64,000 bases of DNA from the NCBI GenBank assembly GCA_964350735.1, contig CAYGKO010000001.1:310578-374577 (forward strand). Reading direction: 5' to 3'. How positions within the stretch are numbered: position 1 is the first letter of the stretch; each line of letters begins with the position of its first letter. Under the pieces are notes generated by a model, which worked only from the letters and a program-made list of their open reading frames with translations, searched no databases and was not told where the DNA came from. The position numbers were made by a program, and so were the translations under genes. Positions 32,553 to 49,837 of the stretch are shown here, one piece after another. Origin of the DNA: an uncultured Candidatus Saccharibacteria bacterium (lineage in GTDB: Bacteria > Patescibacteriota > Minisyncoccia > Phycocordibacterales > UBA918).

Positions 32553-32572
32553 TCACTCTGAGAGATTGTAGA

Positions 32573-32604: not shown

Positions 32605-32629
32605 TGTGTGTAAGTGGTATAAATAGTCT

Positions 32630-33262
32630 ATGTCAAATAGATGGGTAGAAAGTGTTAAAAAGAATCTCTTACCTCTGAGTAAAGAAAAAACCGACCTCAA
32701 CCAAGCATTGAGCGAGTGGTTTTATACTGGAGACACCTATGACCTTACTCGCCCTGAGGAAGATTGTGAATTGTGTGATCATCCTGGAATTAGATTTCAA
32801 TTTGAAATAAAAAATCAGCATACTAAAGAAGTTCTGCTAATTGGATCTGAATGTATATTACGATTCTCAATTTCAGCAATTGATGATGAAGGTAATGTAC
32901 TTGATCAAGTTTCCACTACCAAAAAAGTGCACCAAGATAGACGTAAACTTATATCTAACGCTAGAACAAAAAGAGTTATCACTAGCTTAGTAGATTTGTC
33001 ACAAAAAGATAAAGAGTTTGATGACATAAATAATTCAATTGAGTACTTTCAAGAGAGAGGAGCCTTTTCACCTAGACACCTGCTATTTCTATTATGGAGA
33101 ATGAAAAAGAGTGGCGTTTCATTTAACAAAACAGATTTTAAAATGACAATTAGAAGAAATAGAGAGAAAGATCAATTGTTAGCTATGAAGGACTGGGAAG
33201 TAAGAAAAATAAAGCCAGCCATGTCCGCCGCTCAACAAAAATGGTATCAAGAAAATTCATAG
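32630..33262 (+). CDS. Hypothetical protein with a possible Cys4 zinc-binding motif, adjacent to the recombinase
   Basis: CELCDH...GSECI. No other recognisable domain. Confidence 0.35.
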   Translation: MSNRWVESVKKNLLPLSKEKTDLNQALSEWFYTGDTYDLTRPEEDCELCDHPGIRFQFEIKNQHTKEVLLIGSECILRFSISAIDDEGNVLDQVSTTKKVHQDRRKLISNARTKRVITSLVDLSQKDKEFDDINNSIEYFQERGAFSPRHLLFLLWRMKKSGVSFNKTDFKMTIRRNREKDQLLAMKDWEVRKIKPAMSAAQQKWYQENS

Positions 33263-34555: not shown

Positions 34556-34740
34556 GTATATATTAATGACAGACCAGTTTTTATTGCATAGCTATGCAAG
34601 CTAAATAAAACGTCACATACTCGCTTAGCAAAACTACCATTTAGCGATACAATCCCATTAATAGTAGTTTTCTGCTATTATGTTCAACACAACTGAATAC
34701 AAGGCCTAACCCTTTAGTTTCCTAGAGATATGGCCGACCA

Positions 34741-34881
34741 AACGCGATCAACGTAAAAACCCCGACATCAGGGGCGTTGATCGCGTTGCGTGGGGAAACT
34801 TGCGTAGGAACCTTCGGGTTCACCTTGGTGTTCGGGTTTTTGTGTACCTGAACATTTAATTACTCATAAAACGCGATCAAC
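34741..34881. promoter_or_regulatory. Three copies of AACGCGATCAAC(G) (two forming a 13-bp-stem cruciform) upstream of the Ltp-like gene: candidate operator, origin or att site
   Basis: aacgcgatcaacg (34741-34753) pairs with cgttgatcgcgtt (34775-34787), with a ccccgacatcagggg sub-hairpin in the loop. A third copy lies at 34868-34881, 5 bp before the ATG at 34886. Confidence 0.4.
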
Positions 34882-34885
34882 ATTT

Positions 34886-35644
34886 ATGGAAAAAAAAGAA
34901 ACTAAAATCACCCTCGGACTAATTGTCGGGTGGGTACTTGGAGTATTAGTAGGTATTGCTGGAGTGGGTCTGCTTTTCACCGAACCTATACCAGGAATAT
35001 TATTCATTCTGTTATCTTTGGTACTTTTACCTCCAGCTAATCGGATGATAAAAGAGAGATTTAATTTCTCACTCTCAGGCGGAGTAAAGGTAGTATTGGC
35101 AATCGTATTGTTTGTTATAGCTGGAGCGACTATGGATACTGAATCAGTTTCGGATGATAACCCTGTTGTTACTGACATACAGCAAGATACTCTTGAAGAA
35201 GTTGAAGCAAGTGATATGCCATCAAATGAAGTCGTCAGCGAGACTGAAGTAGCAGCGCAAGAACCTGTCTATATAGTGGATACACCAACTAACCAGCAAG
35301 CAGAAGAAAGTCCTGAAACTATTGTTGCGGCACCTGCGGTCGCCCAAGAACAGCCCACTCTGGGAGAAAGACAAGCTATCCGAGCAGCTCAAAACTATAT
35401 CGACTTTAAAGCCTTCTCAAGATCAGGTCTTGTTGAACAACTAGAATTTGAGGGATATTCAAGAACAGAAGCTGAATACGGTGTGTCGGGAATCACTGTC
35501 GATTGGAACGAGCAGGCTGCACTATCAGCTGCTAGCTACCTCGAATACACCAACTTCTCTCGTAGTGGTCTTATTGAACAGCTAGAATTTGAAGGATATA
35601 CGACAGCACAAGCTCAGTATGGAGCTACTGCTGTAGGGTATTAA
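34886..35644 (+). CDS. Ltp-like (host-cell-surface-exposed lipoprotein family) superinfection-exclusion-type membrane protein with two C-terminal Ltp repeats
   Basis: Two repeats: QAIRAAQNYIDFKAFSRSGLVEQLEFEGYSRTEAEYGV and QAALSAASYLEYTNFSRSGLIEQLEFEGYTTAQAQYG. N-terminal TM helices. Confidence 0.6.
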   Translation: MEKKETKITLGLIVGWVLGVLVGIAGVGLLFTEPIPGILFILLSLVLLPPANRMIKERFNFSLSGGVKVVLAIVLFVIAGATMDTESVSDDNPVVTDIQQDTLEEVEASDMPSNEVVSETEVAAQEPVYIVDTPTNQQAEESPETIVAAPAVAQEQPTLGERQAIRAAQNYIDFKAFSRSGLVEQLEFEGYSRTEAEYGVSGITVDWNEQAALSAASYLEYTNFSRSGLIEQLEFEGYTTAQAQYGATAVGY

Positions 35645-37248
35645 CATCTAGAGCTTTTTCGACTTTGTGGTGTATCTACGGTCTCAATCCGTTCTTTGGC
35701 TTCGGGAGTGAGACAATCAACATCTTGCAAGACATCGCGATAGTCGTGATACCAGCAGGTGTTGTCGTCCATTGATCCAGGCCCTAGAGACGCGATCAAG
35801 AAGGTACTTTCTTTAGTGAATTCTTCGACGATTTTGTGTATAAGGATTGAAAATGCGTCAGCTAGGTCGTCATGTTTTTCAACTCCAAAACCAATCATCT
35901 GCTCGATAAGATGTTCACAACCAGTATCAGGAAACAAGACAGTACCTTTTTGGATCATGGAAGACGTCAGAGCTAATCGAGTTCTTTTATCACTCTTTGG
36001 CTTAACTGATATCGCTCTCACTCCTTGTGAATCAAGCATCTGTGGCAGAGCGTCCTGGTATGCCACACTTTCCACAATTAGCTCGTCGGAACTACCATTC
36101 AAATGAATGTTGCTGTGCTGCTTCATCAGCTCTACTTGTTGTGGAAAGGTTAGTCGCTTGTTGATAAGATGAGGCTCGATAAAGATACGCAACGCTTCAT
36201 TGCGACCAAATATACGAGCGGTAACCATAGCAGTACAATCCGCGGTATCTTTTTGTGAGATAGCTAAATCAACGCCAGTGTATGTTGCTCGATACGCTTT
36301 ACTGGACCTCGGCGGCAGTTTGTCAGCATGGTAACAGCAGAGCCAGTCAGGATGAATAACCTGATCTTCATCTGGAATAATGTTGAGTAAGTATTCACGT
36401 TGCCACGCGATATCGTCACCAATTTTCTTTCGCTCCTTTTCAATAGAAGCCAGCGTTGGGAACTTTCCTGGCCAGGCTGATTTATTATCTTTAGTGATCA
36501 AGGCACAGGACATAAACGTGCCGTCTATTTCATTCTTTAAGGCTCGTTCTCGCAACCTCATAAGTAATGAGTCTTCATGAAGCAAGTTACCAACCACGAT
36601 CAAGCGGGTGTTTTGATCACCAGCCGGTATCACATCACCAGTGAGCCACTTGTGTGTTTTATTACGTCCCTCACGTGTTTTGGTGGAAGCTACATCTTCA
36701 ACGTCATCACAAATAAACAAGTCTGGTCGATGTTGATGGTGTCGCATCCCTCGGATACTTTGCTCTGACGAAGCAACAGTGATTCGAGCCTGAGTATTCG
36801 AGAACACAATCGAATGTGAACCCCATTCGTCTGAACTTTCACTAAATGGTCCAAGGTCATTTTTAAGCAACAAGTTATTCTCTAGCTCATTACGAATGTT
36901 CATCATATGTTGTTTGGCTTGTACTCGTGTCTGACAGAATATCACCACAAACTTCTTTTGTTGCTGACCAAGAATTGACCAGATAGGATAGGCGGTCGTA
37001 ATAATTGTTGATTTACCAGAGCCACGAAACGCCACAATGAATAGATTTTCATCAGGTTGATTTTCCACCTTTGCAATTAAATCTTTTTGGAAGGTAGCGG
37101 TTGGAAATAGAACGTAATGTGCGAAGTAGAAATGGAAGAAGTAGTTAAAACTACCCTGCATAACTTGTCGCCTGATCACCTTGTCTTTAGCAAGCGACTG
37201 GAACATCTCCTCAGGAATTGGATTTGGGTTATTGTTTTTCATCTTCAT
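35641..37248 (-). CDS. Phage terminase large subunit
   Basis: Walker A AFRGSGKST, with the ATPase then nuclease layout typical of TerL. Confidence 0.75.
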   Translation of the reverse strand: MKMKNNNPNPIPEEMFQSLAKDKVIRRQVMQGSFNYFFHFYFAHYVLFPTATFQKDLIAKVENQPDENLFIVAFRGSGKSTIITTAYPIWSILGQQQKKFVVIFCQTRVQAKQHMMNIRNELENNLLLKNDLGPFSESSDEWGSHSIVFSNTQARITVASSEQSIRGMRHHQHRPDLFICDDVEDVASTKTREGRNKTHKWLTGDVIPAGDQNTRLIVVGNLLHEDSLLMRLRERALKNEIDGTFMSCALITKDNKSAWPGKFPTLASIEKERKKIGDDIAWQREYLLNIIPDEDQVIHPDWLCCYHADKLPPRSSKAYRATYTGVDLAISQKDTADCTAMVTARIFGRNEALRIFIEPHLINKRLTFPQQVELMKQHSNIHLNGSSDELIVESVAYQDALPQMLDSQGVRAISVKPKSDKRTRLALTSSMIQKGTVLFPDTGCEHLIEQMIGFGVEKHDDLADAFSILIHKIVEEFTKESTFLIASLGPGSMDDNTCWYHDYRDVLQDVDCLTPEAKERIETVDTPQSRKSSRC

Positions 37249-37630
37249 GTTGTTTAGTTGGGATAATTTGTGCCATCTCTAATGCTTTACGGACAATTGC
37301 TTCTTGTTCAGGATTTAGCTCGTCAATGTCGTGCTTATTGGTTACTTCAAGCTTGTCTTTATAGGCTGGGTGTCGCTTGTTCAGCCAAAAGCGAACCGCA
37401 GAAAAGTTCTTTTCTTTAATGAGTTGCAGTAGTTGGTTTTCACTCATGTCGTTCACAAATGCCACACCGTCGGACAGGGCTTTGTCGAACTCTTTTTCAA
37501 AGTCTTTATCCTCTCGCTTCCAGCGGTAGACGGTATTGCGTGATACACCTGTCTTCTCACAAGCTACCTGCACAATTGGCACCTTCTTAAGCTCCTCCAG
37601 GAATTGCTTAGAGTATTTAGGCTTTTTCAT
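37229..37630 (-). CDS. Phage terminase small subunit-like HTH protein
   Basis: HTH (VACEKTGVSRNTVYRWK) directly upstream of and overlapping TerL. Confidence 0.45.
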   Translation of the reverse strand: MKKPKYSKQFLEELKKVPIVQVACEKTGVSRNTVYRWKREDKDFEKEFDKALSDGVAFVNDMSENQLLQLIKEKNFSAVRFWLNKRHPAYKDKLEVTNKHDIDELNPEQEAIVRKALEMAQIIPTKQHEDEKQ

Positions 37631-38900
37631 AGTAGTTTTTGATTACTTTAACTTTTTGATCAGTTAGTTTTTCATAACGCCTTCGCACCACTTCGCAAAA
37701 CACAGGGCTTTGTTCAATGGTATATACTCGTCGTCCAAGTGACTCAGCCGCAATCAAAGTACTACCTGAGCCAGCAAAGGAATCAAGAATAATGTCGCCT
37801 GGTTTGGTGCAACGTTTGATTGCTTTCTCGTGGAGTGACGGTGGTTTAGATGTTGGGTGCTCATACTCAGATGATTTCAATCTTTTAGCGCCCCATACGT
37901 TACTGAGGTCTTCAAGTAGTTGATTGCCAGTCCCAAGTTCTTTGTTTTGCACTTCGGTAGCATCCTGCGTCTGTTTGGATAGGTGCGGACTTCCTATGGT
38001 GCCGTATACACAAAATTCGATCACCTTGTTAAACGCAACCGTTGGTGTTGGTGATGCGTTATTCTTGAGCCAGACGTTCAGTCGACGGTTTTTAATACTG
38101 AGTTCGTTGTATAAGATTTGGAATACCCAGACCCAAGCCTCGTCGCACCAGTAGAAGAAGTGAGTGTCTTTCGTGGATACTGCAAGAGCTGCTTCAAGTG
38201 TCTGCTTGATAAAGGCTTTATATTGATCTGGTTTCTTGTCGTCATCAACCCTGCCACCATATGAGGCTTTGTTACCGACACCTTTGTCGTAGTCCAAATT
38301 TATGTTGTATGGTGGATCAGAGTATATGAAGCTAGTCTTATCTTGTCCGAATAATGCCTCAACTGCTTTACTGTCAGTACAATCGGAACAAAGCAATTTG
38401 TGCTTGCCAAGGATAAGCAAATCACCTGATTCGATATCTGTATCTTTGGCAGTTTCGACTGCTTTCTCTTCATCAAAGTCGTCATTTTCTGTACTTAGAT
38501 CCTCATCCCAAAATGAAGCTAGTTCAAGATCGTCAAAACCTGAGTCGGTGAGTAGACCGAGATCAAAGCTCTTTAAGGCTTCGAAATCCCAGTCACCGGT
38601 AACTTTGTTAGAGGTGATGAGATATTCTTCATATTCTTTTTTGGTGAGCTTGCGATTCGGCACGCGCACGTCAACCTCTTCATGACCACGGTCAAGGAGT
38701 TGCATCACTTTAAGACGTTGGTGCCCGGCTATCACTTTGTTGTCTGTATCAATCGCTGGGATCTCAACTAGATTAAACTTCTCCAGACTTTGCTTTAATT
38801 TTTTAAGTTGTATATCGCTCAGGGTACGAGGATTGCTCTCGTACGGGATTAAATCTTTGATGACACGGGTTTCGGTGTGCCAAGCTAGTTTTTTAGACAT
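37617..38900 (-). CDS. ParB-like nuclease domain fused to an N4/N6 DNA methyltransferase
   Basis: ParB N-terminal motif (GHQRL), SDPPYNI methyltransferase motif IV, and FAGSGST motif I. Confidence 0.8.
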   Translation of the reverse strand: MSKKLAWHTETRVIKDLIPYESNPRTLSDIQLKKLKQSLEKFNLVEIPAIDTDNKVIAGHQRLKVMQLLDRGHEEVDVRVPNRKLTKKEYEEYLITSNKVTGDWDFEALKSFDLGLLTDSGFDDLELASFWDEDLSTENDDFDEEKAVETAKDTDIESGDLLILGKHKLLCSDCTDSKAVEALFGQDKTSFIYSDPPYNINLDYDKGVGNKASYGGRVDDDKKPDQYKAFIKQTLEAALAVSTKDTHFFYWCDEAWVWVFQILYNELSIKNRRLNVWLKNNASPTPTVAFNKVIEFCVYGTIGSPHLSKQTQDATEVQNKELGTGNQLLEDLSNVWGAKRLKSSEYEHPTSKPPSLHEKAIKRCTKPGDIILDSFAGSGSTLIAAESLGRRVYTIEQSPVFCEVVRRRYEKLTDQKVKVIKNYYEKA

Positions 38901-39065
38901 TTTATTAAGTCTTACTTAAATAAAATGTGTAGATATAGAAAAAGCCTACGTCCACACACGAAATAAAGAGCGGTTAAGCTATCTATTTCTTGCGCGGAGT
39001 AGGCACGGTGGGTGAGACTATGCGTTACTCTTCTTTTTACTACGCAATATAGTATTTATATTAAA

Positions 39066-39479
39066 TCAAGTTGTCTTCTCTTTGGCAAGTCGACGTAGTA
39101 GACGCTTGCCACTTTTGCTCGCGAGGAATTGTTGTGTATCAGGACCAAATTTTACCGGTACTCCTTCTTTTGGTATTTGTAGGACTACCTTGTATCCGTT
39201 CGATTGTTCTTGTTGCACATACTCAACGAACGACGGATCCTTTTGTAGGTTTTCTGCGAAGACTGACCAGTCCTTGCCAATATCTCCAGTCGTTGGAGAG
39301 TAGATACGTCCAGGTTCATCTTTACGAAATGCTTTTGCTACTTTACGACCGACAGATTTTAATGGTGGATGCTTAGTGGTATGAACCAGAAAATCAGTGA
39401 TCTCGATCACTTTATATTTCTGGCCATGCACTGGTTTGTGCGGCTTGAGTTGCAATTCTGTTACAAACTCTTCTGCCAT
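39066..39479 (-). CDS. Hypothetical protein
   Basis: 137-aa ORF with reasonable coding potential. No recognised motif. Confidence 0.35.
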   Translation of the reverse strand: MAEEFVTELQLKPHKPVHGQKYKVIEITDFLVHTTKHPPLKSVGRKVAKAFRKDEPGRIYSPTTGDIGKDWSVFAENLQKDPSFVEYVQQEQSNGYKVVLQIPKEGVPVKFGPDTQQFLASKSGKRLLRRLAKEKTT

Positions 39480-39703
39480 AACTACTTTCGCTTTCGGGTA
39501 CTTGGTCGCTGTGAAAGGGCACTACCAGCTGCAGTCTTTGATTTGCTTGAGGTACGTCCGTCACGGAGTACACTACTCGACGCTTTGGCGGCTCGTGAAC
39601 TCGTTACTTTGCTTCGGTTGCTTTTGGGCATGATGAAGTTTTTTAGTGGATAATGACTCTATTGTATTCCTGCATTTTGGAAGTGTCAAGAGTGTAAAAT
39701 AAG

Positions 39704-39753
39704 TTGACTAAATAGTGTGTAATTTAGGCTGAAATATGGTATAATAAGGGGGT
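39704..39753 (+). promoter_or_regulatory. Putative promoter with an extended -10 (TGgTATAAT) and a strong RBS for the LexA-like gene
   Basis: TTGACT at 39704-39709, TGGTATAAT at 39737-39745, AAGGGGG immediately before the ATG at 39754. Confidence 0.4.
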
Positions 39754-40398
39754 ATGCACGAACTACAATCAAAACTATACAACCTGGCCAAGCACGAAGA
39801 CCTCGGTAAATTGAGTCTTCGCCAGATAGCCAAGATGATCGGTGCGGATAATAAGCCTCAGATAGCAAAGCATCACCTACTACAACTCGATAAAATTGGT
39901 CTGTTACAGGTGAATCTTGATGAGGGTGTGGTGAAGCCTACAAAGCGTGGCTTTAACATGCCTGCCGCTAAACGTTTATTTTATTCTCTGCCAATTGTCG
40001 GCATGGCCAATTGTGGCCCCGCTAATGTTTTTGCTGAAGAGCGGATTGAGGGCTACCTCAAAGTGTCAGCGAAAATGCTACCGCACCGTAAGAGTGACTT
40101 ATTTGTTCTAGTGGCTGATGGTCCGTCGATGAATAAGGCTGAGGTGCGTGACGGAGTGACGATTGAAGATGGTGATTATGTAGTAGTCGATAGCGCAGAC
40201 AGAACCCCTACTAACGGAGATGTTGTTGTTGCGGTGATTGAGGGGCTAGCAACGATTAAACGGTACCGAAAAGATACTAAGAATAATCGAGTATTGCTTG
40301 AAGCAGATTCAACTGAAAAGTATCACCCGATTGTTATTGCTGAGGATGACGAGTTCGTAATTAGCGGAATAGTAGTAGATGTGATTAAGAAAAATTAG
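39754..40398 (+). CDS. LexA-like transcriptional repressor (winged-helix DNA-binding domain + S24 autopeptidase)
   Basis: The N-terminal HTH resembles the LexA DNA-binding domain. The C-terminal S24 domain has the Ser (GPSMNKA) and Lys (ATIKRY) dyad. Confidence 0.8.
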   Translation: MHELQSKLYNLAKHEDLGKLSLRQIAKMIGADNKPQIAKHHLLQLDKIGLLQVNLDEGVVKPTKRGFNMPAAKRLFYSLPIVGMANCGPANVFAEERIEGYLKVSAKMLPHRKSDLFVLVADGPSMNKAEVRDGVTIEDGDYVVVDSADRTPTNGDVVVAVIEGLATIKRYRKDTKNNRVLLEADSTEKYHPIVIAEDDEFVISGIVVDVIKKN

Positions 40399-40407
40399 AA
40401 CCGGAAT

Positions 40408-41403
40408 ATGAATGAAATAAATACTGCATTGGATAAATTACTTAAAGTGAATATAAATATCGGTCAAACAGCACGCTCACAAGGATCTATTAGTCATAAC
40501 TATATTCGCGATGTTTTAAAAGGTAAGAGCAGTACTAATCCACTCTTTCCACGTCTGGTGGATGGAGATTTTTTAAGTGGTTCGTATGCTCGAGGGACAA
40601 AGTTGAAGCCGCTTGATGACATTGACGTTATGGTGGTGATAGATGGTGCCGGATTACATGTCGTTAACAGTGGGTTGGTGCAAAACATTGGAGTTAGAGG
40701 ATCAGAGAAACACGATAATCCAATTTTGCAACACATTGGAGTTGATTCACTTCTAAGTTCTGCCAAAGTGATGTCACTTTTTCAAAAAGCGTTGAGTGAA
40801 ACCCACCCCAACTCAAAGATTCGCAATGATGAGCAGGCGGTAAACGTATGGTTAGAATCATATGGTCTTGGCATAGATGTTGTGCCATGTTTCCATCTTA
40901 TTCCACAAAGTGGCACGAGAGATTATTATTTTATTCCTGAAGGAAACGGCGGTACTGGCTGGAAGACAACAAATCCAAAAATTGATGAAGAGATATCAAG
41001 TACTCTTCACGAACGTCACGATAAAAAGCTAAAGAAAGTAATTCGTTTGGTTAAGTATTGGAACACTGTAAGTAATAACGGCAATCTCAAGTCGTATCAT
41101 ATTGAAACGCTTGCATGGCACATATTCGATAAGCGTACAGAAGTTATTCGTTCGCTAGAAGATGGATTGATAGCATTCTTTGTAGGTGCAGACGAGTTCC
41201 TTGCTATTGCGTGCGCTGACAAAACAGCTCTAGGAGGTCCGGTCGACCACTATCTTTCTGAAACTGCTCGCGCTAATTCTCGTCAGAAAGTTCGCGAAGT
41301 GTTTGGATTATTGTCTGATACGTATGTTACTCACGAGAATGACCCAGCCTTAAGAAAACGTGTCTGGCAAACGATATTTTCAAATAAACTTTCATTTGCA
41401 TGA
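40408..41403 (+). CDS. cGAS/DncV-like nucleotidyltransferase (CD-NTase / SMODS-type), candidate CBASS-like signal synthase
   Basis: Pol-beta NTase motif GSYARGTKLKPLDDIDVMVV (GS...DxD), a third acidic residue in GIDVVPCF, and a helical C-terminal domain with RLVKYWN. Confidence 0.6.
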   Translation: MNEINTALDKLLKVNINIGQTARSQGSISHNYIRDVLKGKSSTNPLFPRLVDGDFLSGSYARGTKLKPLDDIDVMVVIDGAGLHVVNSGLVQNIGVRGSEKHDNPILQHIGVDSLLSSAKVMSLFQKALSETHPNSKIRNDEQAVNVWLESYGLGIDVVPCFHLIPQSGTRDYYFIPEGNGGTGWKTTNPKIDEEISSTLHERHDKKLKKVIRLVKYWNTVSNNGNLKSYHIETLAWHIFDKRTEVIRSLEDGLIAFFVGADEFLAIACADKTALGGPVDHYLSETARANSRQKVREVFGLLSDTYVTHENDPALRKRVWQTIFSNKLSFA

Positions 41404-42248
41404 ATAATGATTTACTGAAAAAGGTGGTTGAATTGGAAAGTTTGGCCAAGCTTCTGTTTGATAAGGCAGTCTCTCTACGGTACTCAGCGTTGGGAATCGA
41501 GGTTCTGGCGGGGTTGCTAGCAGTCGCTATTGCCTTATTACAACCGTCTAAGACGGTGCTGTTTTGGTTTGCGGTAATTGGGTTCGTAATGCTGACTGTT
41601 TCGTATGTGCTGAAGGTATATTTCTCTATTATTTACGAACGGGCTGAAACCATGCGACGGCAAGCAGTACTGGCCAATGCTTTGGGTTGGGACATCCAGA
41701 AGGTTCAATTCAGTGAGTGGAGGCAATTAGCTGGAAAGAATCTCTTGAAGAAGTTAGAGAGTGCAACGCTTGACGAGGATTACTATGCAACAAAACAAGA
41801 ATCAGGCGCTTTACGATTACTTGAGATGACACAAGAATCAGCTTTTTGGACACGGCATCTATATAATAGTATCAAGACGTATCTATGGATAATTTTCGGT
41901 ATTGCGACCTTACTGTTCCTTACTGTTCTCACAGTAACATCCTCATACACACTCAACGGCAATCTTTCATTGCAAATTGCTTACGTTGTGTACCTACTAA
42001 TGCCGCTTATCTTAACTATTGATGTATTGGGTTGGGCAATCAAGCTACACATTGTCGCTGGTTCTATTAAAGAAATCGAATGTGACCTGGAACGACTAAA
42101 GGAAAATCATCAGGTGAATGAAGTTAACGTATTGAGACTGGTGTCAGAATACAACTGCCAAGTCATCCAGGGTTTCCCAGTCCCTAGCTGGTTTTTCAGC
42201 ATGCACCATGACCACACAGCTGTTCTTTGGAAAAAAAACAATGAGTAG
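41400..42248 (+). CDS. Multi-pass membrane protein translationally coupled to the NTase: candidate membrane-disrupting effector (SLATT-like)
   Basis: ATGA start/stop overlap with the NTase gene. Two pairs of TM helices separated by a soluble segment. No enzymatic motif. Confidence 0.45.
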   Translation: MNNDLLKKVVELESLAKLLFDKAVSLRYSALGIEVLAGLLAVAIALLQPSKTVLFWFAVIGFVMLTVSYVLKVYFSIIYERAETMRRQAVLANALGWDIQKVQFSEWRQLAGKNLLKKLESATLDEDYYATKQESGALRLLEMTQESAFWTRHLYNSIKTYLWIIFGIATLLFLTVLTVTSSYTLNGNLSLQIAYVVYLLMPLILTIDVLGWAIKLHIVAGSIKEIECDLERLKENHQVNEVNVLRLVSEYNCQVIQGFPVPSWFFSMHHDHTAVLWKKNNE

Positions 42249-42669
42249 CCCGTTTTCGATTGGTGAAATATGTGCAGTTATTTTTTCACAGACTTCGCAC
42301 ACTATTTATGCAACTGTATTAGAGTTGGTTATTTTTCTCTGGCCGTGGTATTGGCTCCTTATCGTACTTGGTCTTGGTGGTTGGATTGCTTTTGAAATTA
42401 CGACTAGAAACGGCACTATTCATCACAACTCAGAAAATGGTTTTTCACCAGTGTTTAATAGTTTTGTAGGGAGTTGTACATATACTGGATTACAAACATT
42501 TTTTTTCTTCATACTGACGTCGCTGTTTGGTTCAGGTGTCTATTGTTTCGTCTGGCCATTTGCAATACATATCTTGATATTTCTATCGACGGGTAAGTTA
42601 CTACACGTTATTGGATTTTGGCCGAGACTTGAGCGTCCAAACAATAGACGTCGGAATAGGAGGCGGTAA
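42241..42669 (+). CDS. Small membrane protein with an Arg-rich C-terminal tail, overlapping the preceding gene (ATGAGTAG)
   Basis: Two or three TM helices and a C-terminal RPNNRRRNRRR. The start is trimmed to the ATG at 42241, which overlaps the upstream stop. Confidence 0.4.
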   Translation: MSSPFSIGEICAVIFSQTSHTIYATVLELVIFLWPWYWLLIVLGLGGWIAFEITTRNGTIHHNSENGFSPVFNSFVGSCTYTGLQTFFFFILTSLFGSGVYCFVWPFAIHILIFLSTGKLLHVIGFWPRLERPNNRRRNRRR

Positions 42670-42731
42670 AAGTTACAGTTACATGTAACTTTAGATCTTT
42701 GATCTGTGTAACTTTTGTAACGTTTTCTTGC

Positions 42732-42830
42732 GCACGAGACACTATCGAATTGAATTCTGAATGTAAGCTAATCGGTCAAGCCCTGCTTGACCGACCACGG
42801 TTCTAGCTCGAGACAGCCCGCAGTTGACGA
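42732..42830 (+). repeat. Complex ~100-bp repeat (att-like), direct repeat of 49543-49690
   Basis: gcacgagacactatcg...ctga...gtaagctaatcggtcaagcc...cacggttct...ctcgagacagcccgcag shows about 80% identity to the 49543 copy. Confidence 0.6.
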
Positions 42831-44275
42831 ATTGAGGCATTTTTAGGGGTATTTGCGAGTACTTGATACTCGTCTTTAAACTGAAAGCTAGCCACATTTT
42901 CGTTCTCAATCGTAAGGTTCGAAAGCAACTTTTCTAGCAGTTTACGTTTAGATTCATCTTTTGCTTCGATGTACTCATTTGAGGCTGTATTTCCTTGTTT
43001 AAATACGTTTTTGATTTGTTCGAAAGTAGAATCTGAGAGTGGTCCTTTTTTATCAATTTCTTTGAGTTGATTTTTGAGAGCGGTGCGGTCGTTTTCGATT
43101 TGTTTCATCTTTTCCTCAAAGAGAGGTTTTTTAATAAGAAGTGATGTATATCCATCAACTAAGGTAGATTCTTTCGTGTCGAGCAATTTTAGCTCTTCTA
43201 GGATGCTTTCTCGTGCAGAGTCAGTGTAGGTGTCAGTTGAAGTGTTTTTCTGTCTGTAGGCTTCGGCAGAGAGCTTGATAGTTTCTTCATCAATATGAAG
43301 TTCTTCAAAGAGTTTTCCGATCAGTGCGTCCATTTTCTCGGACCGCAGATACTTGCGGGGAGCAGAGCAGATTTTCTTGCCGTTGGTGCAGTAATAGTAC
43401 TGATGTCCTTTCTTCGTATCTCCTGTATAGGTACAGCCACAGTTGGCACAAGTAACAAAGCCACGAGCAGAGTAGAAATGTTTTTCTTTCTTAGGGTGGT
43501 TCCGATTATTGAAGACGTTTTGAACCGACTCGTATAATTTACTGCTGACAATAGCTTTGTGTTTCCCTTGGTAGACAGTACCTCTAAATTCCATTAGTCC
43601 GGTGTAGAAGATTTGGTTGAGGATTTTGTGGATTTGAGATTTATACACCTTGTTACCAGCAGGGGTACGCATTCCCTCGTTGTACATAATGTCTACTAGG
43701 TCAGTGAGAGTGTACGCACCGGTAGCGTAGAGGTCGAAGATACGTTTTACATACTTGGCGCGTTTGGGTACGACTTTCACTAGTCTGTCTTCTTTGTCAT
43801 TACGATAGCCATAGGGAGCAATGTTCGGCCATTCTCCACGTTCTAGTTTTGCTCTATTGCCACGCTTCACGTTTACACTCAGATCACGGAGATATTGAGT
43901 AGCCATAGCTTGTTCAATACTCATGATGAGTACGTTGTCATGAGGAGAGTAGGTTTTCTCGAATGTTGTTATGCATTGAATATTGCCTTTTTGAAGTAGC
44001 CACTGAATTTGTCCTCCGTCTACTGGATTACGGGTGAGACGGTCGATTTTCCAGCAAAGAATAGCATCAGCTTCACCAGCTAGAATTTTAGTCATCATCT
44101 GATTGAAGACAGGGCGACCAGGAGCTTTGGCAGACATGCTCTCAGTCATGATTTCTACAATCTCAATACCCTGAGCTTCAGCGAGTCGTTTGAGTTCATT
44201 TTCTTGTGACTCTAAAGAGAGGACCTGTCTGTCTTCAGTATCAGTTGATTTTCGAGTGTAGAGAATATATTTCAT
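42803..44275 (-). CDS. Large serine recombinase
   Basis: YTRKSTDTEDRQVLSLESQ catalytic N-terminus, recombinase domain, and a Cys-rich zinc ribbon (CANCGC...YYYC). Confidence 0.85.
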   Translation of the reverse strand: MKYILYTRKSTDTEDRQVLSLESQENELKRLAEAQGIEIVEIMTESMSAKAPGRPVFNQMMTKILAGEADAILCWKIDRLTRNPVDGGQIQWLLQKGNIQCITTFEKTYSPHDNVLIMSIEQAMATQYLRDLSVNVKRGNRAKLERGEWPNIAPYGYRNDKEDRLVKVVPKRAKYVKRIFDLYATGAYTLTDLVDIMYNEGMRTPAGNKVYKSQIHKILNQIFYTGLMEFRGTVYQGKHKAIVSSKLYESVQNVFNNRNHPKKEKHFYSARGFVTCANCGCTYTGDTKKGHQYYYCTNGKKICSAPRKYLRSEKMDALIGKLFEELHIDEETIKLSAEAYRQKNTSTDTYTDSARESILEELKLLDTKESTLVDGYTSLLIKKPLFEEKMKQIENDRTALKNQLKEIDKKGPLSDSTFEQIKNVFKQGNTASNEYIEAKDESKRKLLEKLLSNLTIENENVASFQFKDEYQVLANTPKNASIRQLRAVSS

Positions 44276-44357
44276 AACTGAATGTTTATCTGATAATACG
44301 TCTTATTTCTTCATTCTTCAAATATGACTAATTAGTCAAGGGACTGGGTCGCTTGGG

Positions 44358-45158
44358 CTACGCCCACGCGCGACCCCAGTCCTCAAATAAGTCATCATCA
44401 TATGTTGTACCTTTGATAGCTTCGATGAGCTTTTTTGCATCGGTGAAGTACATGTATTCACCGGGAAGTACATACACATATGGATTCATGTTTTTGACAC
44501 GTTTCTTACTCATACCAGATTTATTCCATTGACGTAGTCGTGCTTTTTGCCAGCGACGAAAGATTCGGAAGTTGCGTCTAATAATCTTGATGTCTTCTTT
44601 TGTTCCGACAATGATAGCGATGTTTCTGTGTAGAAGTGATCGACTATAGCCCCAGAACTGACCACAATCGTGATAAAAGTAGGGAACGGTCTTTTGAGCT
44701 TCTTTGGTTAAATACGAAGCGAGATAGCGCTTGAAGGCTTCGGTCTTACGAATAGGAGATATATGCGCTCCGTGTTCACGATGGCGTTTGTCTTTTGATC
44801 CTACGATCTCATACCACATTCGTTTAAGTTCATCTTCGTTGATTTCTTTATCGGCAAGAATATGGAAGTGACACGCACCTCGTTCTTGAAATTCCATGAA
44901 CCAAAACCAGCGGATACCTCTGTAGTTAAAACGGAGCATCATCTTGTGCAGATGGGACTTTACGATTTTTCCATCCTTTGGGAATTTTCGAGGATATGTG
45001 AGCCCGATTTCGTGCGTCATCTCGTCTGGTAAATTCCTCAGAATATGGCGTGCGCGCTTGATCGAACCGTACGAAAGCCTTTTGATTTGGCCCCTTTCTT
45101 TCCGATTCTGGTCGGTTAATAAATTCTTCGACTGATTGTTCTTGTTTCTTTTTTCCAT
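44358..45158 (-). CDS. Rolling-circle replication initiator (HUH endonuclease, phiX gpA-like double-Tyr type). The start is uncertain, with an internal ATG near 45020.
   Basis: HUH motif ACHFHIL and motif 3 YLASYLTK, which resembles phiX174 gpA YVAKYVNK. Confidence 0.55.
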   Translation of the reverse strand: MEKRNKNNQSKNLLTDQNRKERGQIKRLSYGSIKRARHILRNLPDEMTHEIGLTYPRKFPKDGKIVKSHLHKMMLRFNYRGIRWFWFMEFQERGACHFHILADKEINEDELKRMWYEIVGSKDKRHREHGAHISPIRKTEAFKRYLASYLTKEAQKTVPYFYHDCGQFWGYSRSLLHRNIAIIVGTKEDIKIIRRNFRIFRRWQKARLRQWNKSGMSKKRVKNMNPYVYVLPGEYMYFTDAKKLIEAIKGTTYDDDLFEDWGRAWA

Positions 45159-45553
45159 AAGGTATTTGTGTGCAAGGTCCTATCTTCAAATCGAATGGCC
45201 ACATCTCAATTTTTAAGGTCTCGTCTTTATGCCAACGAGGCCCTTGGATTAAGGGGTGCAATATGTCGATTGGTTTTAGCTTCCCAGCGTCAGCTAAGAA
45301 GTATCGGACTTGCTTCATTTTTTATTTTGTACGAGCTCACTGAACACTTCGTAGAAGTCAGCTAGAGCGTTTAGGTGCTCGATAGCTGTTTCATCACTAA
45401 TTTCCTCACCGTGTCTGATGAGTACATATAGCTTCATGCGTTTGATAAGCTCGTGGTTAAAACTCATAACCTACGCATTGTCGAGTCGCCATGTGTCGGA
45501 AAAGGAGTACAATGGAATAGTGATGGCTAAAAACCTCGCTATCTTTACAGAGT

Positions 45554-46459
45554 ATGAAAACTTTTAAGACTAAAAAACCCTCATTCTTCAAGAAAGGAAC
45601 GCTGGTTTTTTCTGACTCTGGTCATAAGCTAGTGAGAGACGGCAAATATTACAGGTGCTCTAAAAACACAAACGGAGAGTGCGATCTGCATAAACCAATA
45701 TCGCTAGAAGCGTTCGAGACAAAATTCTCTCGCTTAGCTACTAAGCTTTACTCTGAACGATTGGACTTTGATTCAATTTTCAAAAATCTCTTTCGCGACC
45801 ATTTCTGGGATATCGTTTTTGGTATAGATGAACGCCTGCTGGGGAAAGAGGAAGTGGCGGATTCTACTATCGAACTGCTAAAGAAGGATGCAGGAAATGG
45901 TAAGAAACCGTCTCGATCGTTAGTAAAGGATTTTGAAGAGAACTACATAGAATCACTTAAAGCTGATTATCCGGTAATGTTGCTGGGTTATGCAGTAGGC
46001 ATGGTGCGTGTTTGTTCTATCGAACAAAAGAAATCTGAAATGGGGAGAAGCTTAGCTCATTTCTCTAAAAAGATTTATATCGGAAATGATGGAGAGATTG
46101 AGGTTATAGAATTAGAGCGTTGGGCTTGGTACGTATTTAATGCCGTGATCAAGAAAGCTTATCCTGAGTATCTCAATGAACGAGAGGATTTAAAATTTAT
46201 GAATGAAGAAGACGTTCTGCATACGATGAGTATCACAAAAGCATGCGAAGCGTTTGGTGAAACTGAATTCAATGATGCTCTTGGTGAAAATTTCATTGCT
46301 TGTATAGGCTGGATTAAATTCCTCAAGGAATCTTTCACAGGAATGTTTGATGACGGTCAGGAGGGTGAAATGAACTCCCAGTTTCCGGAACTGATAGAAA
46401 AAATGCAGAATGACCCAGCGCTAGGGATTATGATGAGAGTTAGTGCTATAACAAAATAA
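45554..46459 (+). CDS. Hypothetical protein; first gene of a coupled pair
   Basis: 301-aa ORF. Its stop is 3 nt before the next ATG. Confidence 0.4.
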   Translation: MKTFKTKKPSFFKKGTLVFSDSGHKLVRDGKYYRCSKNTNGECDLHKPISLEAFETKFSRLATKLYSERLDFDSIFKNLFRDHFWDIVFGIDERLLGKEEVADSTIELLKKDAGNGKKPSRSLVKDFEENYIESLKADYPVMLLGYAVGMVRVCSIEQKKSEMGRSLAHFSKKIYIGNDGEIEVIELERWAWYVFNAVIKKAYPEYLNEREDLKFMNEEDVLHTMSITKACEAFGETEFNDALGENFIACIGWIKFLKESFTGMFDDGQEGEMNSQFPELIEKMQNDPALGIMMRVSAITK

Positions 46460-46461
46460 TT

Positions 46462-47577
46462 ATGAAAATTGATAGACAGTTAGTAGAGAACTACAATGAA
46501 CTTGATTGGGAAAGACTTCTTAGAGCAGATCTGGGTAACGCTGGTCAATTGAGCGCAGCTAAACCTTATTTCGACAGAATTAAGAATACTTTTGACTCGA
46601 TTTTAAATAATCCAATTACAGATAGTCTTTCAGATGATGCTAATCAAAGAGTTGAAGTGGAGCTAAATAACTTCATAACTTTTTTGCAAAGTGAAATTGT
46701 GAATTTCTCAGATGTCTCATTGAGAAAACAAAAGCTTACAGCGGTACAAAATAAAGAGTGGCAGATAATAACTAACTTAAATGCTGTCATTTCATACCTG
46801 GTTCTTAATGAGGAAAAAGTGAATATTAAAGACACTGAACTATTACTAGAGAATGCAAAGAAGGAATTAGATTTGGAAAGAGCAAAGTCAAAGTCCCAAA
46901 ACGAAAATATAGCAAGCACTTTCGATAAGTTATCCGAGTCTATAAAACTGGCTGATTCATTAGAGAGTAAATCAGGTGTTATAAAAACTGCAATCATTAG
47001 AGCAGAAGAATGGATAAGTAAAAATGAAGATGCTGTTCAACTCATTTTAAAAAGTAACGCTACAGATTCTGCTAAAAAAGCTGAAGAACATAAAACCTTT
47101 AAGTTTGAATGGGTGAGTATTTGGCTTTTTAAGCACATTCCATACTTACAAAAAATAAAGCAACCTGCAGTTGAAGGTACATTCTTTTGGATTTTGTCCG
47201 CTATTATCTCTGGAACTTTTGTAATGTCTATTATAGGTTTTTTTGTTTATCTTGATTATTTAGGTCGTGAAATTAATGTAGCTAGTGTTCTGTTGAGGTT
47301 ATCAGCAGTCTTAATACCTGCTTACTTTACATTCTTCAGTGCTCAACAATATTTAAGCCATCGAAGGTTATATGAAGCATATAGATTCAGAGACGTAACC
47401 CTGCAAACAATGATTAGTTTGAGAGACCAAAGTCCAGACGATACGTTGGCAAAAGAGCACATTCTTAAAAAAGCTGTTGAGGTAATGTTCGCTGAGCCAA
47501 AAATGAGCGGGGAAGTTAAGTACGACAAGCAGGTTGTGTCTCAATTGTTGGACTTGGCTAGGAACAGATTAGGTTAA
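46462..47577 (+). CDS. Hypothetical coiled-coil protein with two C-terminal TM helices; second gene of the pair
   Basis: About 230 aa of coiled coil, then TM helices GTFFWILSAIISGTFVMSIIGFFVYL and LLRLSAVLIPAYFTFFSA, followed by a conserved-looking Y/R helix. Confidence 0.4.
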   Translation: MKIDRQLVENYNELDWERLLRADLGNAGQLSAAKPYFDRIKNTFDSILNNPITDSLSDDANQRVEVELNNFITFLQSEIVNFSDVSLRKQKLTAVQNKEWQIITNLNAVISYLVLNEEKVNIKDTELLLENAKKELDLERAKSKSQNENIASTFDKLSESIKLADSLESKSGVIKTAIIRAEEWISKNEDAVQLILKSNATDSAKKAEEHKTFKFEWVSIWLFKHIPYLQKIKQPAVEGTFFWILSAIISGTFVMSIIGFFVYLDYLGREINVASVLLRLSAVLIPAYFTFFSAQQYLSHRRLYEAYRFRDVTLQTMISLRDQSPDDTLAKEHILKKAVEVMFAEPKMSGEVKYDKQVVSQLLDLARNRLG

Positions 47578-47695
47578 AATATTTCTAACCCCAGCATGCA
47601 CTTAGGGTTGACATTTGCTTGTATAAGTGTTTCTCTTCTATAGAATCGCTCTTTAAAGAGCACCTTACAACACAAAAAATACAGAGGAGGCAGAC

Positions 47696-48787
47696 ATGGA
47701 TCTGACCAAAATCAACGAAATCTTGGCCGCAGAAAGCAAAGCGTTCAAAGAAGGTGTCCAGGACGCTATCGACGCAGCAATTGATCGACGGAAGGATATG
47801 AAGTCTGAAGTCGCAACAATCCTTGGTCTCGACAGCGGCACTACTCTCACAGAGGAAAGCTTCTTCGCAATCCTCGATGGATTTACAGAGATCTCTGGCA
47901 ATCTCGATTCTGTCTTGCAGCAAGCTGGCTTCGACTCAAAGGTCGCAGGCGCTTGGCTTCGTAAAGAAGACCCTCCCAAGGAGGGGTTTCGTGGGCCAAC
48001 GCTTCGTATGTTGGCGGAGGTAGTCTTTGACTACTACGCCGACAACCGTCTTTATCATGACCTGCATCAGGTCTTGGAAGACTGGGGTGACCCTGAGGTA
48101 CTCGCAGCAGCGGCTCATAAGACCCTACCTCTCGATTCTGCACTGGAAGAACTCGGTGTGTTTGATGATGTTAGGGCGCTTGACCAGGGCACAAGAATCC
48201 GTAACTGCATTAAGAATGAAGGTCTTATCACTCTTGGCGAATTGCTGAGTCGTGCGGAAATCGAGTGGCGGCGTGTGCCAAACTTTGGGAACAAGAGTCT
48301 GAGAACCTTAGAGGCTTATCTTAAGGACCGTTTTGGTACTGGATTCATAGACCTCGAAAATCCAGACCCTGACTTAGAACGTTTCCAGAGTATGTCATGG
48401 GAGAGACTGAGCCTTAAAGCGGCTGCGGGTAAACTTTTAGTTACGCAATGGCATGAGAGTGAGAAGAAGCCAGAATACGCTGACCTTGATTACCATGCGT
48501 TTCAGCCCGTATTGCGCGAAAAGGGGCCTGAAGAGGTTTATGTGCAAATTTATGCTGACCATGACTTGATGGAGGCTCTCAAAGAGGCAGGCATTCTGCA
48601 CTGCACTCAGTTAGCAACAGCTCCGCAAAAGGTACTTGATCAAATCTGTCATGGTCAAACTGAATGGCAAGAACAACTTCCGAAGCTCTTAGACTGTGAT
48701 CGTTCCAGTCACTATTATAGGTCTTTGTCGCTGGGAATGGGAACTCCTCTGTTTCTCGACCCAGAGGTTGAAGTATATACCTCATAA
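47696..48787 (+). CDS. Protein with an RNA polymerase alpha-subunit C-terminal-domain-like (helix-hairpin-helix) module; higher GC than its neighbours
   Basis: TRIRNCIKNEGLITLGELLSRAEIEWRRVPNFGNKSLRTLEAYL matches the alpha-CTD pattern (RSxNCLKxxGIxTxGDL...PNxGKKSL). Codon GC is visibly higher than in flanking genes. Confidence 0.5.
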   Translation: MDLTKINEILAAESKAFKEGVQDAIDAAIDRRKDMKSEVATILGLDSGTTLTEESFFAILDGFTEISGNLDSVLQQAGFDSKVAGAWLRKEDPPKEGFRGPTLRMLAEVVFDYYADNRLYHDLHQVLEDWGDPEVLAAAAHKTLPLDSALEELGVFDDVRALDQGTRIRNCIKNEGLITLGELLSRAEIEWRRVPNFGNKSLRTLEAYLKDRFGTGFIDLENPDPDLERFQSMSWERLSLKAAAGKLLVTQWHESEKKPEYADLDYHAFQPVLREKGPEEVYVQIYADHDLMEALKEAGILHCTQLATAPQKVLDQICHGQTEWQEQLPKLLDCDRSSHYYRSLSLGMGTPLFLDPEVEVYTS

Positions 48788-48795
48788 GAAGCTTT

Positions 48796-48829
48796 GGGCC
48801 GTGCGATGATAATCGCGCGGCTCTTTTTC
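48796..48829 (+). terminator. Rho-independent terminator
   Basis: gggccgtgcgatgataatcgcgcggctc + tttttc. A second hairpin, cacgcccgcaagggcgtttttg, lies at 48889-48909. Confidence 0.6.
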
Positions 48830-48916
48830 TTGGTTTATTATCTCAAGAATAGTTCGGATTTCGTCCCACACTGCCCGCACAGACAATCACGCCCGCAAGG
48901 GCGTTTTTGTATGTGC

Positions 48917-49026
48917 GGAGAGTAAAGTAACAGTCCGGGGGACTGTTACGTGGGATTCGAAAAGGTTGCCTGATATTTTCGCCAGAAAATATCGACAACC
49001 TATACTGCTCGTGTAGCGAGAGAAAT
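48917..49026 (+). repeat. Structured repeat unit, copy 2. It begins GGAGAGT and is immediately followed by the duplicated tRNA 3' end.
   Basis: Same conserved blocks as 16527-16650. The middle hairpin (gatattttcgccagaaaatatc within ggttg...caacc) differs in sequence from copy 1 but keeps the structure. Confidence 0.6.
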
Positions 49027-49068
49027 TCCCTTACTCTCCGCCGTTTAGAGCTAGCACGAGACATTATG
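49027..49068 (+). repeat. attR-like direct repeat: duplicated tRNA 3' end plus the cacgagacattat core, followed by a terminator hairpin
   Basis: tcccttactctccgccgtttagagctagcacgagacattat. The hairpin agcacgagacattatgtttcgtgct + ggtttt lies at 49054-49084. Confidence 0.65.
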
Positions 49069-49097
49069 TTTCGTGCTGGTTTTGGTATAATTGCATT

Positions 49098-49541
49098 ATG
49101 GATTGGATCAGTGTCGTACAAAGTCTACTCGTCGCAGTCGTTACTGCTATTGTTGTGTCATTAATTAACCACTACTTAACAACGGCTCAGCGCAAGAAAA
49201 ACGAGATTCGAGAAATGAAACGTAAAGCATATTCTGAATTGTTAGACAGTTCCAGAGCGTTTTTGGATGATCCAAATCTAAGTAAAGATGAAAGGAGAGC
49301 TATAAAAAAGAAATTTTTAGAAAAATACTACAATGAAATTATCCTATTTGCCGATACTGATGTTCAGAATGGAATCGAGGATTTTGTAAAAACTGGGGGA
49401 GTGTCTTCAACAAATCCTGGTTCACAAGTTTCAAAACTTAAGAATATGATTATCTCTATAAGAAAAGATTTGGAATTTGAAGATTCAGTTTCAGAAGACT
49501 TTAAAATGTATTCTCTTGATATAGGTGAAGAAAGAGATTAG
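49098..49541 (+). CDS. Hypothetical protein with an N-terminal TM helix (single-gene cassette)
   Basis: 147-aa ORF bounded by core-motif repeats on both sides. Confidence 0.4.
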   Translation: MDWISVVQSLLVAVVTAIVVSLINHYLTTAQRKKNEIREMKRKAYSELLDSSRAFLDDPNLSKDERRAIKKKFLEKYYNEIILFADTDVQNGIEDFVKTGGVSSTNPGSQVSKLKNMIISIRKDLEFEDSVSEDFKMYSLDIGEERD

Positions 49542-49542
49542 C

Positions 49543-49728
49543 GCTCGAGACACTATTGTACCAAAATCTGAGAAGTAGCTAATCGGTCAAGCCTGGCTTA
49601 ACATCACACGGTTCTCACCACAAGAGTATTTCCGAAATTATATTCCAGTAAACTTTTATTAATTTCTAGGTCAACTCGAGACCGCCCGCAGATGCCAAAC
49701 CCCAACAGAGCTTAAGCTCTGTTGGGGT
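49543..49728 (+). repeat. Complex repeat (att-like), partner of 42732-42830. It carries a ~60-bp insertion and a terminal hairpin.
   Basis: gctcgagacactattg...gtagctaatcggtcaagcc...cacggttct...ctcgagaccgcccgcag, then aaccccaacagagcttaagctctgttggggtt. Confidence 0.6.
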
Positions 49729-49837
49729 TTGCTGCATTCTGCGCGAGAGTAAGGGGTTACTAATATTTTGCACCTTCGCCAGGAGTCACCTGGCGATCTA
49801 CATTTGTTTAATAGGTTTATGCTGCTATACTTTTTAT

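Follow-up and report, generated by a model that had tools for sequence, protein, structure and literature searches.

The locus considered here raises the question of whether two similar sequences flanking a recombinase gene are the ends of the element that this recombinase would move. It lies in a 64,000-nt stretch of DNA (the window; positions 310,578 to 374,577 of the 408-kb contig CAYGKO010000001.1, assembly GCA_964350735.1) from an uncultured Candidatus Saccharibacteria bacterium of the candidate phyla radiation (CPR), and comprises a large serine recombinase gene (LSR2), a rolling-circle initiator gene (Rep) and cargo genes between two repeats of about 100 nt. The initial annotation had these repeats bound a 6.8-kb element (42732–49542), in effect as attL and attR, and saw a possible crossover in a 16-mer, the 'core' (GCACGAGACACTATCG), at the left edge of the repeats. 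Comparison with related loci points elsewhere: the 'direct repeats' are probably two copies of a widespread docking module of about 95 nt that imitates the end of a tRNA gene, and not the ends of the element, and the LSR2/Rep element, designated U3, is likely to be the segment 42822–48878 within a tRNA-anchored array, with its crossover at N^GCGG (a caret marks a junction throughout). The features on which this reading depends are as follows.

42822–48878: U3, the LSR2/Rep element; 6,057 bp, boundaries placed by comparison, flanked by GCGGGC
42803–44275, minus strand: LSR2, large serine recombinase of 490 aa (Pfam, PHROG)
42816–42821, minus strand: GCGGGC at the LSR2-proximal junction (read from the sequence)
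42730–42821, minus strand: left module copy, 95L; starts GCGGGCTGTCTCGAGC-TAGAAC, holds a hairpin and ends with the 'core'
44358–45158, minus strand: HUH rolling-circle Rep, motifs HFH and YLASY (PF23343, phrog_3419)
45554–46459, plus strand: 301-aa protein, third member of the conserved module (homologues near LSR genes)
46462–47577, plus strand: 371-aa cargo protein with hydrophobic C-terminal segments (translation)
47696–48787, plus strand: 363-aa cargo protein with an RNA polymerase alpha-CTD domain (PF03118, 1.8e-9)
48852–48878, minus strand: distal end of U3, P' site GCGGGCAGTGTGGGAC-GAAAT-CCGAAC (nhmmer E = 3e-10)

The position of the LSR2-proximal end is suggested by the recombinase family, which has more than 2,500 members homologous to LSR2, those with an organism name being almost all from CPR/Patescibacteria. 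In 47 of the 59 genome loci compared, each oriented on its recombinase gene, the LSR homology ends no more than 60 nt from an antisense tRNA, and in 39 the distance is −6 to 0 nt; the open reading frame (ORF) of the recombinase reads on into the antisense tRNA at these junctions, and the tRNAs concerned span 16 anticodons and nine amino acids. The closest relatives of LSR2 (P0004, 77% at the amino acid level, seven contigs) read CAACT^GCGGAGAGTAAGGGATTCGAACC, the antisense of a tRNA-Ser(ACT) nearly identical to that at 16871–16959 of the window. In the window and in one relative (L026; related loci are cited by such numbers), the LSR2 gene ends in CTGCGGGCTGTCTCGAGC-TAGAACC instead of a tRNA, in the tRNA-like register (nt 19), and the final six codons and the stop of LSR2 fall inside the 95-nt leader of the neighbouring unit. 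After the shared QLRAV, the LSR2 tail has 7 residues here (490 aa in total) and is predicted to have 33 in the circle (42803–42826 joined to 48700–48878; 516 aa) and 13 beside the tRNA (496 aa, the exact length of P0004). From the family comparison, the junction would thus fall between 42821 and 42822, at the 3' end of the recombinase gene and at the repeat end opposite the 'core' in which the crossover had been sought.

The far-end P' site, present once in the window, is an antisense mimic of a tRNA 3' end with 5 extra nt, and its copies in 12 other loci are always co-oriented with the recombinase gene and on its 5'-end side. Where the contigs cover the span, repeats or conserved P' sites mark far ends 3.7–6.9 kb from the end of the LSR gene; in L086 the P' site TGCGGGCAGTGTGGGACGAAATNNGAAC occurs five times, the innermost copy being the far end of a 4.4-kb LSR/Rep unit. 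In phage serine integrases, an outward shift of the zinc-ribbon motif by about 5 bp separates attP from attB half-sites. Relative to GCGG, GAAC begins at nt 19 in 36 tRNA junctions, and 12 of the 22 P' sites have it at nt 24, the expected pair of registers being seen in this way for one half-site of the pair. The same pair occurs at a target other than a tRNA in L204 (proximal GCTAGCCGACAGGGA-TTCGAAC, distal GCTAGCCGTCTGGGAC-GATAT-TAGAAC). By the 5-bp rule, the family crossover would lie close to N^GCGG, at one or two bases beyond the tRNA discriminator.

The distal boundary follows from loci in which U3 is missing between the same neighbours. These neighbours belong to what is likely to be an array of mobile units stacked 3' of tRNA-Ser(ACT) in the order U4, U3, X2, U1 and then the chromosome, with the following components.

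16871–16959, plus strand: tRNA-Ser, anticodon ACT, the array anchor (ARAGORN, Rfam)
16960–16986, minus strand: S1, terminal near-palindrome of U4 (GTCTAGAGCTA plus 'core'), abutting the tRNA (51-nt repeat)
33263–42821, minus strand: E1, the conserved part of unit U4 (16960–42821; Pfam, PADLOC, gene order)
48879–49042, plus strand: X2 unit (homologous units in relatives)
49043–49690, minus strand: mini-unit U1, made of the degenerate right module copy (95R), ORF147 and near-palindrome S3; a one-gene analogue stands at the same place in L127
49098–49541, plus strand: ORF147
49043–49069: S3
49702–49743, no strand: palindromic terminator-like hairpin, outer edge of the array (sequence; Logan contigs break here)

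In L131 (three times), L171, L155, L096 and L123, the leader begins 15 nt after a unit homologous to 48893–49083 of the window, the shared modules having 77–84% nucleotide identity to those of the window. The junction in L131 reads …TATTTTATACGG^GCGGGCTACCTCGAGC; in the window there is a first junction, …TGATTGTCTGT^GCGGGCAGTGTGGGAC…, then U3 ending with LSR2, and a second junction, …GTCAACT^GCGGGCTGTCTCGAGC. The window therefore differs from these empty arrangements by 42822–48878, a segment of 6,057 bp flanked by GCGGGC, and the right end of the element, initially drawn near 49543, is put at 48878 by L131, L171, L155 and L096. The anchoring of the array is seen in the last 16 nt of tRNA-Ser(ACT), which recur at 49027–49042, in the family statistics given above and in the syntenic relative L127 (malic enzyme 74% identical), where the tRNA-Ser(ACT) is followed by a terminator, an X unit and a one-gene unit that shares the termini of 49043–49690, with neither U3 nor the element of the second recombinase, LSR1. 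This layout, with X directly behind the tRNA, explains the 51-nt repeat of the window (16944–16994 and 49027–49077, 88%), and about 31.9 kb (U4 plus U3) appears on this comparison to separate the tRNA from its former neighbour X2.

The repeats are nevertheless real, as the initial annotation had it, since 42730–42804 aligns with 49541–49615 at 75% over 75 nt, and the insertion of about 60 bp noted in the second copy measures 57 nt. A second block, CTCGAGAC(A/C)GCCCGCAG, stands at 42808–42826 and 49672–49690, beyond the 57-nt insertion in the right copy. The 'core' 16-mer is exact at 42732 and beside the tRNA at 16971–16986 (6 nt from the 16965–16980 first reported), has two mismatches at 49543 and, in a diverged copy at 49054 (first placed at 49057), three; of the partial occurrence reported near 50322, only GTCTCGAG is shared. 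Four matches to the 16-mer in the window compare with 0.34 expected, and four were reached in 1 of 100 shuffles. That the repeat is not a chance product is best shown outside the window, where the 18-mer CTCGAGCTAGAACCGTGG was found in 109 metagenome stretches and one viral contig (96 distinct contexts) with the same architecture of about 95 nt. The 17-mer AGCTAATCGGTCAAGCC matched two viral contigs, in both within coding regions, and these matches were set aside as chance.

The shorter motif GTCTCG(A/T)G(C/T) has seven copies between 16979 and 50332, all on the minus strand, of which four show the extended form (A/C)(G/A)ATA(G/A)TGTCTCGWGC; two extended copies end the 95-nt modules (42732, 49543) and two lie at a distance of 11 nt from a unit junction (16971, 49054). 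Near junctions, a 20-bp imperfect palindrome, GTCTCGWGC-TA-GCWCKAGAC, has the motif as its left arm; the palindrome is perfect in L134, L164 and L203. Judged from these positions, the 'core' is a conserved terminal motif of leader-type units and possibly a protein-binding site. A crossover within it is far less easily accommodated. The 16-mer is over-represented and exactly flanks a 25.7-kb segment (16987–42731), and the core end of the module is itself a conservation boundary, with other sequence beyond it in 32 of 69 contexts; yet the left repeat is contiguous with an E1-type body in 37 of the 69 contexts without LSR2, the family junction lies at the recombinase 3' end, X2-like and U1-like units occur without any LSR2 element in L127 and L131, and the hybrid sites expected from such a crossover were not seen among the metagenomic module contexts. 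An element bounded at 42732 and 49542 by the repeats as attL and attR is on these grounds very improbable.

The metagenomic contexts also indicate to which unit the left repeat belongs. The architecture of the module is constant: it includes a hairpin and a further GTCTCGWGC motif, and in 52 of 69 contexts the end of that motif falls exactly 63 nt past the 18-mer. Directly after the module, GTGAC/GTTAC repeats like those of the window follow in 37 of these 69 and other sequence in 32, and contigs long enough for genes carry the LSR1-element gene set behind the module, with no LSR2 nearby. L026 is syntenic with the window past the LSR2 end (module, GTGAC repeats, methyltransferase (MTase), TerS, TerL, LSR1), and the E1 gene order behind the module is repeated in L026, L093, L098, L109, L129, L131, L193 and L202. 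The GTGAC/GTTAC repeats and the gene set of 33263–42700 behind the module therefore make the left repeat the leader of the neighbouring LSR1/terminase-like element, that is, its terminal module and not an att site of U3. On its other side, positions −9 to −4 (GC(G/T)GGC) are 88–99% conserved, except for the G/T alternation at −7, and conservation at −10 and beyond is at most about 50%, with one position at 71% (96 distinct contexts). The left neighbours are unrelated and fall into at least five classes, including terminators and the ends of X units, of other units and of other ORFs; LSR2-type gene ends (window, L026, L116) are a small minority. One recurrent ORF end (…GGTCATCNGATAAC..ATATTTAGT^GC…) abuts the leader in L095, L112, L159, L177, L186 and L191, possibly as the 3' end of a further gene family that docks at the leader junction.

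These data bear on a further possibility, namely that the repeats are a regulatory or RNA module of the LSR1 element (a small RNA, or a terminator with an operator), duplicated by descent and unconnected with recombination. The hairpin is conserved, with compensatory changes, operator-like GTGAC/GTTAC repeats come next and both copies are intergenic; the scans made assigned the 95-nt module to no Rfam family, relaxed thresholds giving only noise around the repeats and X units. A left boundary sharp to the nucleotide, with at least five classes of unrelated neighbours, is however the signature of a junction, and the first 22 nt of the module imitate a tRNA 3' end in the very register used by the LSR family. 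A purely regulatory role is accordingly quite unlikely, and regulation would in any case be compatible with a U3 ending at 42822 rather than an alternative to it.

A composite arrangement deserves somewhat more weight, while still being unlikely: U1, X2 and U3 could have been integrated whole as a 6.87-kb circle, the repeats being att products of a crossover at their right-hand CCCGCAG end. The P' arm would then be the right repeat, CTGCGGGCGGTCTCGAG-TTGACC-TAGAAA, the target the left repeat, …GTCTCGAGC-TAGAAC, and the circle junction TTCGTCAACT^GCGGGCGGTCTCGAGTTGACC. The copies share 18 of 19 nt at CTGCGGGC(T/G)GTCTCGAG, either would give the same LRAVSS* tail, and joint movement of adjacent units is expected in such arrays. 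However, the right copy (49543–49690, with insertions of 57 and 5 nt) has an insertion that is unique among 94 module copies and could be mere decay, U1-like and X units reside by the tRNA in L127 without an LSR2 element, and a family-typical P' site is available at 48852–48878.

Several points weigh against a U3 that ends at 48878. The right module copy stands in the +5 register expected of a P-type half-site, as the composite circle would have it. The repeat flanking U3 is only 6 nt long (9 nt with one mismatch), and the P arm within the LSR gene has no obvious symmetry to P'. For this species, neither an empty site nor a circular junction came to light, the empty arrangements belonging to other organisms, and the scan of viral contigs for the predicted attP or circle junction found nothing. 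Arrays of repeated modules are, moreover, prone to misassembly in metagenome-assembled genomes, yet one independent Logan contig (run ERR3534985) spans 38889–49725 and is identical to the window over this length; the break of Logan contigs at 49702–49725 coincides with a perfect palindrome and is therefore no evidence of polymorphism. Exact-protein look-ups with flanking genes for empty-site strain variants returned nothing or the same sample only, LSR alone and Rep alone as locus queries against viral contigs found nothing, and small contigs with close LSR relatives (L203–L206), considered as possible circles, showed no terminal overlap.

The gene content of U3 agrees with the initial annotation (LSR, HUH Rep, two proteins without family, alpha-CTD protein; Pfam, PHROG and motifs read), and so does the description of a mobile element of roughly the size given there, whose left edge carries the recombinase gene; the boundaries proposed there are not supported. 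LSR2 has a resolvase catalytic domain (PF00239, 3.2e-22) followed C-terminally by recombinase (PF07508, 2.9e-14) and zinc-ribbon (PF13408, 8.4e-7) domains, as expected of a large serine recombinase; it matches the phrog_95 integrase (3.4e-83), and its catalytic Y6, R8, K9, S10 and T11 are invariant across 30 homologues, the window protein included. Rep is a two-tyrosine HUH protein, in which an intact GACHFHIL motif precedes an intact YLASYLTK, with matches to PF23343 (37.8 bits, cutoff 27.8) and phrog_3419. The 301-aa protein has no match in Pfam, PHROG, NCBIfam or PADLOC and the 371-aa cargo protein no family match in the family-library scans, and rpoA models cover only residues 157–211 of the 363-aa alpha-CTD protein. 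Nothing in 42822–49541 matches structural or morphogenesis families of PHROG or Pfam, which does not fit an inovirus or microvirus prophage. Rep homologues adjoin the LSR gene in L009, L013, L019, L021–23, L086 and L148, and homologues of the 301-aa protein lie 1–2 kb from it in at least 13 loci; LSR2, Rep and this protein are a recurrent module of CPR genomes.

If U3 is active at present, it would be excised as a circle by LSR2 through recombination of x^P' (48878) with P^leader (42822), leaving the predicted empty site TGATTGTCTGT^GCGGGCTGTCTCGAGC (also given as GTGATTGTCTGT^GCGGGCTGTCTCGAGCTAGAACC) and giving the circle junction TTCGTCAACT^GCGGGCAGTGTGGGAC (also given as TTCGTCAACT^GCGGGCAGTGTGGGACGAAATCC). 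The circle would be replicated by the rolling-circle mechanism through its own HUH Rep, and would be re-integrated by LSR2 at the 3' end of tRNA-Ser(ACT) or at a leader imitating one. One half-site would be a tRNA 3' end (acceptor and T-arm, GAAC at nt 19) or a mimic such as the 95-nt leader, and the element's own half-site, P', would be a tRNA-end mimic with GAAC at nt 24, a +5 shift as between attP and attB. U3 may have arrived before or after the LSR1 element. A wider proposal is tentative and somewhat less likely to hold than to fail: the family may read the acceptor/T-arm end of tRNAs as a generic half-site, of which P', the leader and X would be portable mimics, allowing an integron-like stacking of units and single-gene cassettes by serine recombinases behind any tRNA, and their docking onto one another.

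Around U3, two tRNA-Ser genes lie at 16.4–17.0 kb, and the unusual tRNA-Ser(ACT) is conserved beside a normal tRNA-Ser(GCT) in several CPR genomes (L009, L067, L086–L092, L127). Other leaders adjoin the S1-type terminus in L131, L164, L187 and L195. E1 comprises the 95-nt leader, GTTAC repeats, a CBASS pair, an S24 repressor-like gene, an MTase gene, TerS/TerL-like genes, Ltp (a lipoprotein gene), a LOOT RNA and LSR1 (33263–34555), the second large serine recombinase. The CBASS pair (40408–42248), an oligonucleotide cyclase (PADLOC 1.9e-54) and a 4TM effector (2.7e-25), stands just behind the leader, and the LOOT RNA (34703–34822; RF03000, 72.9 bits) between the LSR1 start and Ltp. LSR1 was considered as a terminal gene and rejected as such, its 3' end abutting no recognisable junction. 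Between its stop and the tRNA, about 16 kb of same-strand genes (16987–33262) encode, among others, DsbA-like, DUF3105 and DUF305 proteins, an M23 peptidase and a P-type ATPase; the M23 peptidase gene directly abuts LSR1 in L026 and L109, and the exact 16-nt repeat (16971, 42732) brackets the block together with the LSR1 element. The block could be either the cargo of one large unit or several units.

The X units are of about 130–170 nt (X1 at 16495–16663 and X2 in the window; others in L035, L053, L067, L075, L096, L123, L127, L131, L134, L140 and L155). X2, in the order common to these units, opens with a terminator, which is followed by a segment copied from the 5' acceptor strand, by hairpin H1, by a copy of the T-arm and by hairpins H2 and H3, and it closes with the last 16 nt of tRNA-Ser(ACT). 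The copy at the close of X units covers the last 16–22 nt of the cognate tRNA, both ends of the units vary in step with the tRNA next to them (Ser-GCT, Ser-ACT, Trp, Leu, Val), and H1 keeps 7–12 bp despite unrelated sequences. An antisense guide resembling a bridge RNA was considered and rejected, the 'antisense' segment being the tRNA's own 5' acceptor strand and T-arm; X is therefore read as a top-half tRNA mimic or long inverted repeat, which could act as RNA or as a DNA cruciform. RNAalifold on a MAFFT alignment of X units, itself poor, recovered only H2 and H3, and a search for the X hairpin in viral contigs found nothing. At 16681–16852, a near-consensus promoter (TTGACT-N17-TATAAT) precedes a hairpin-rich segment of about 135 nt just upstream of the tRNA. 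This segment opens with the initial 18 nt of tRNA-Ser(ACT) and closes with the complement of these; it has two homologues in L127 (reverse strand, about 3990–4110) and appears to be the counterpart, at the 5' end, of the X units.

Serine integrase and HUH Rep are thus combined in a system that appears, by analogy, to work like SCCmec islands, tycheposons and pSAM2-type elements. The SCCmec islands of staphylococci (CcrAB) likewise have large serine recombinases, one chromosomal anchor, tandem units separated by short att-derived repeats, and units that can in principle leave singly or together, whereas their anchor is the 3' end of rlmH (orfX), two recombinases act jointly, a rolling-circle Rep is not known from them and their att repeats are not known to imitate a tRNA; in the array considered here, the recombinase gene itself crosses the junction. 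The pSAM2-type elements of actinomycetes are, like U3, small, with tRNA integration, excision and rolling-circle replication (predicted for U3), and a weak RepSA hit was obtained, although these elements use a tyrosine integrase with Xis, carry conjugation genes and have actinobacterial hosts. The phiC31, Bxb1 and A118/LI integrases share with LSR2 the three domains, and their attP/attB shift of about 5 bp is paralleled by the registers of P' (nt 24) and of the tRNA or leader (nt 19) seen here for one half-site; unlike LSR2, they target protein-coding genes or intergenic sites that do not imitate tRNAs, their int gene does not extend across att, and they are not known to form arrays.

In L086, five single-gene cassettes at 600–4000, each preceded by the 28-nt P' site, together with one 95-nt module, adjoin the LSR/Rep unit at tRNA-Ser(ACT), an integron-like array on a serine recombinase, and L027 and L067 likewise have several P' sites. 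Integrons resemble L086 in having single-gene cassettes each behind the same short recombination site, next to a recombinase gene. They differ in their tyrosine recombinase, folded single-stranded attC and attI with promoter, none of which is found here, and only serine-type recombinases occur in the window. In the tycheposons of Prochlorococcus, 910 of 937 surveyed integrase-carrying elements have tyrosine integrases and 27 a large serine recombinase, and each newcomer displaces earlier elements outward, with partial tRNAs and decayed units left behind (bioRxiv 10.1101/2020.12.28.424599). They share with the array tRNA-anchored integrative elements with their own replication genes, whereas their tyrosine integrases split the tRNA, their host is cyanobacterial, their replication genes are of the primase/helicase type, and neither tRNA-mimic leaders nor X units have been described for them. 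With its CPR host and different gene set, the array is not itself a tycheposon, and the likeness is one of analogy only. What is distinctive here is the tRNA-end mimicry at the element's own site, the portable 95-nt docking module, the X units and the integrase gene that crosses the junction.

For annotation, the locus illustrates that similar sequences flanking an integrase need not be the att sites of that integrase, and the 95-nt module, abundant in metagenomes and marking junctions of unrelated units, offers a practical way to detect such arrays. Hardly any mobile elements of CPR bacteria have been described, and our literature search brought up no account of elements with a serine recombinase at tRNA genes in this group. 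As enzymes of genome engineering, serine integrases are in wide use, and a large natural family that uses tRNA ends together with mimics in a 5-bp register would, if the reading is true, provide a ready set of enzyme/site pairs as well as a natural test of the attP/attB spacing rule. For the recombinase family itself, a C-terminus that depends on its context could couple the integration state of the element to the properties of the recombinase.

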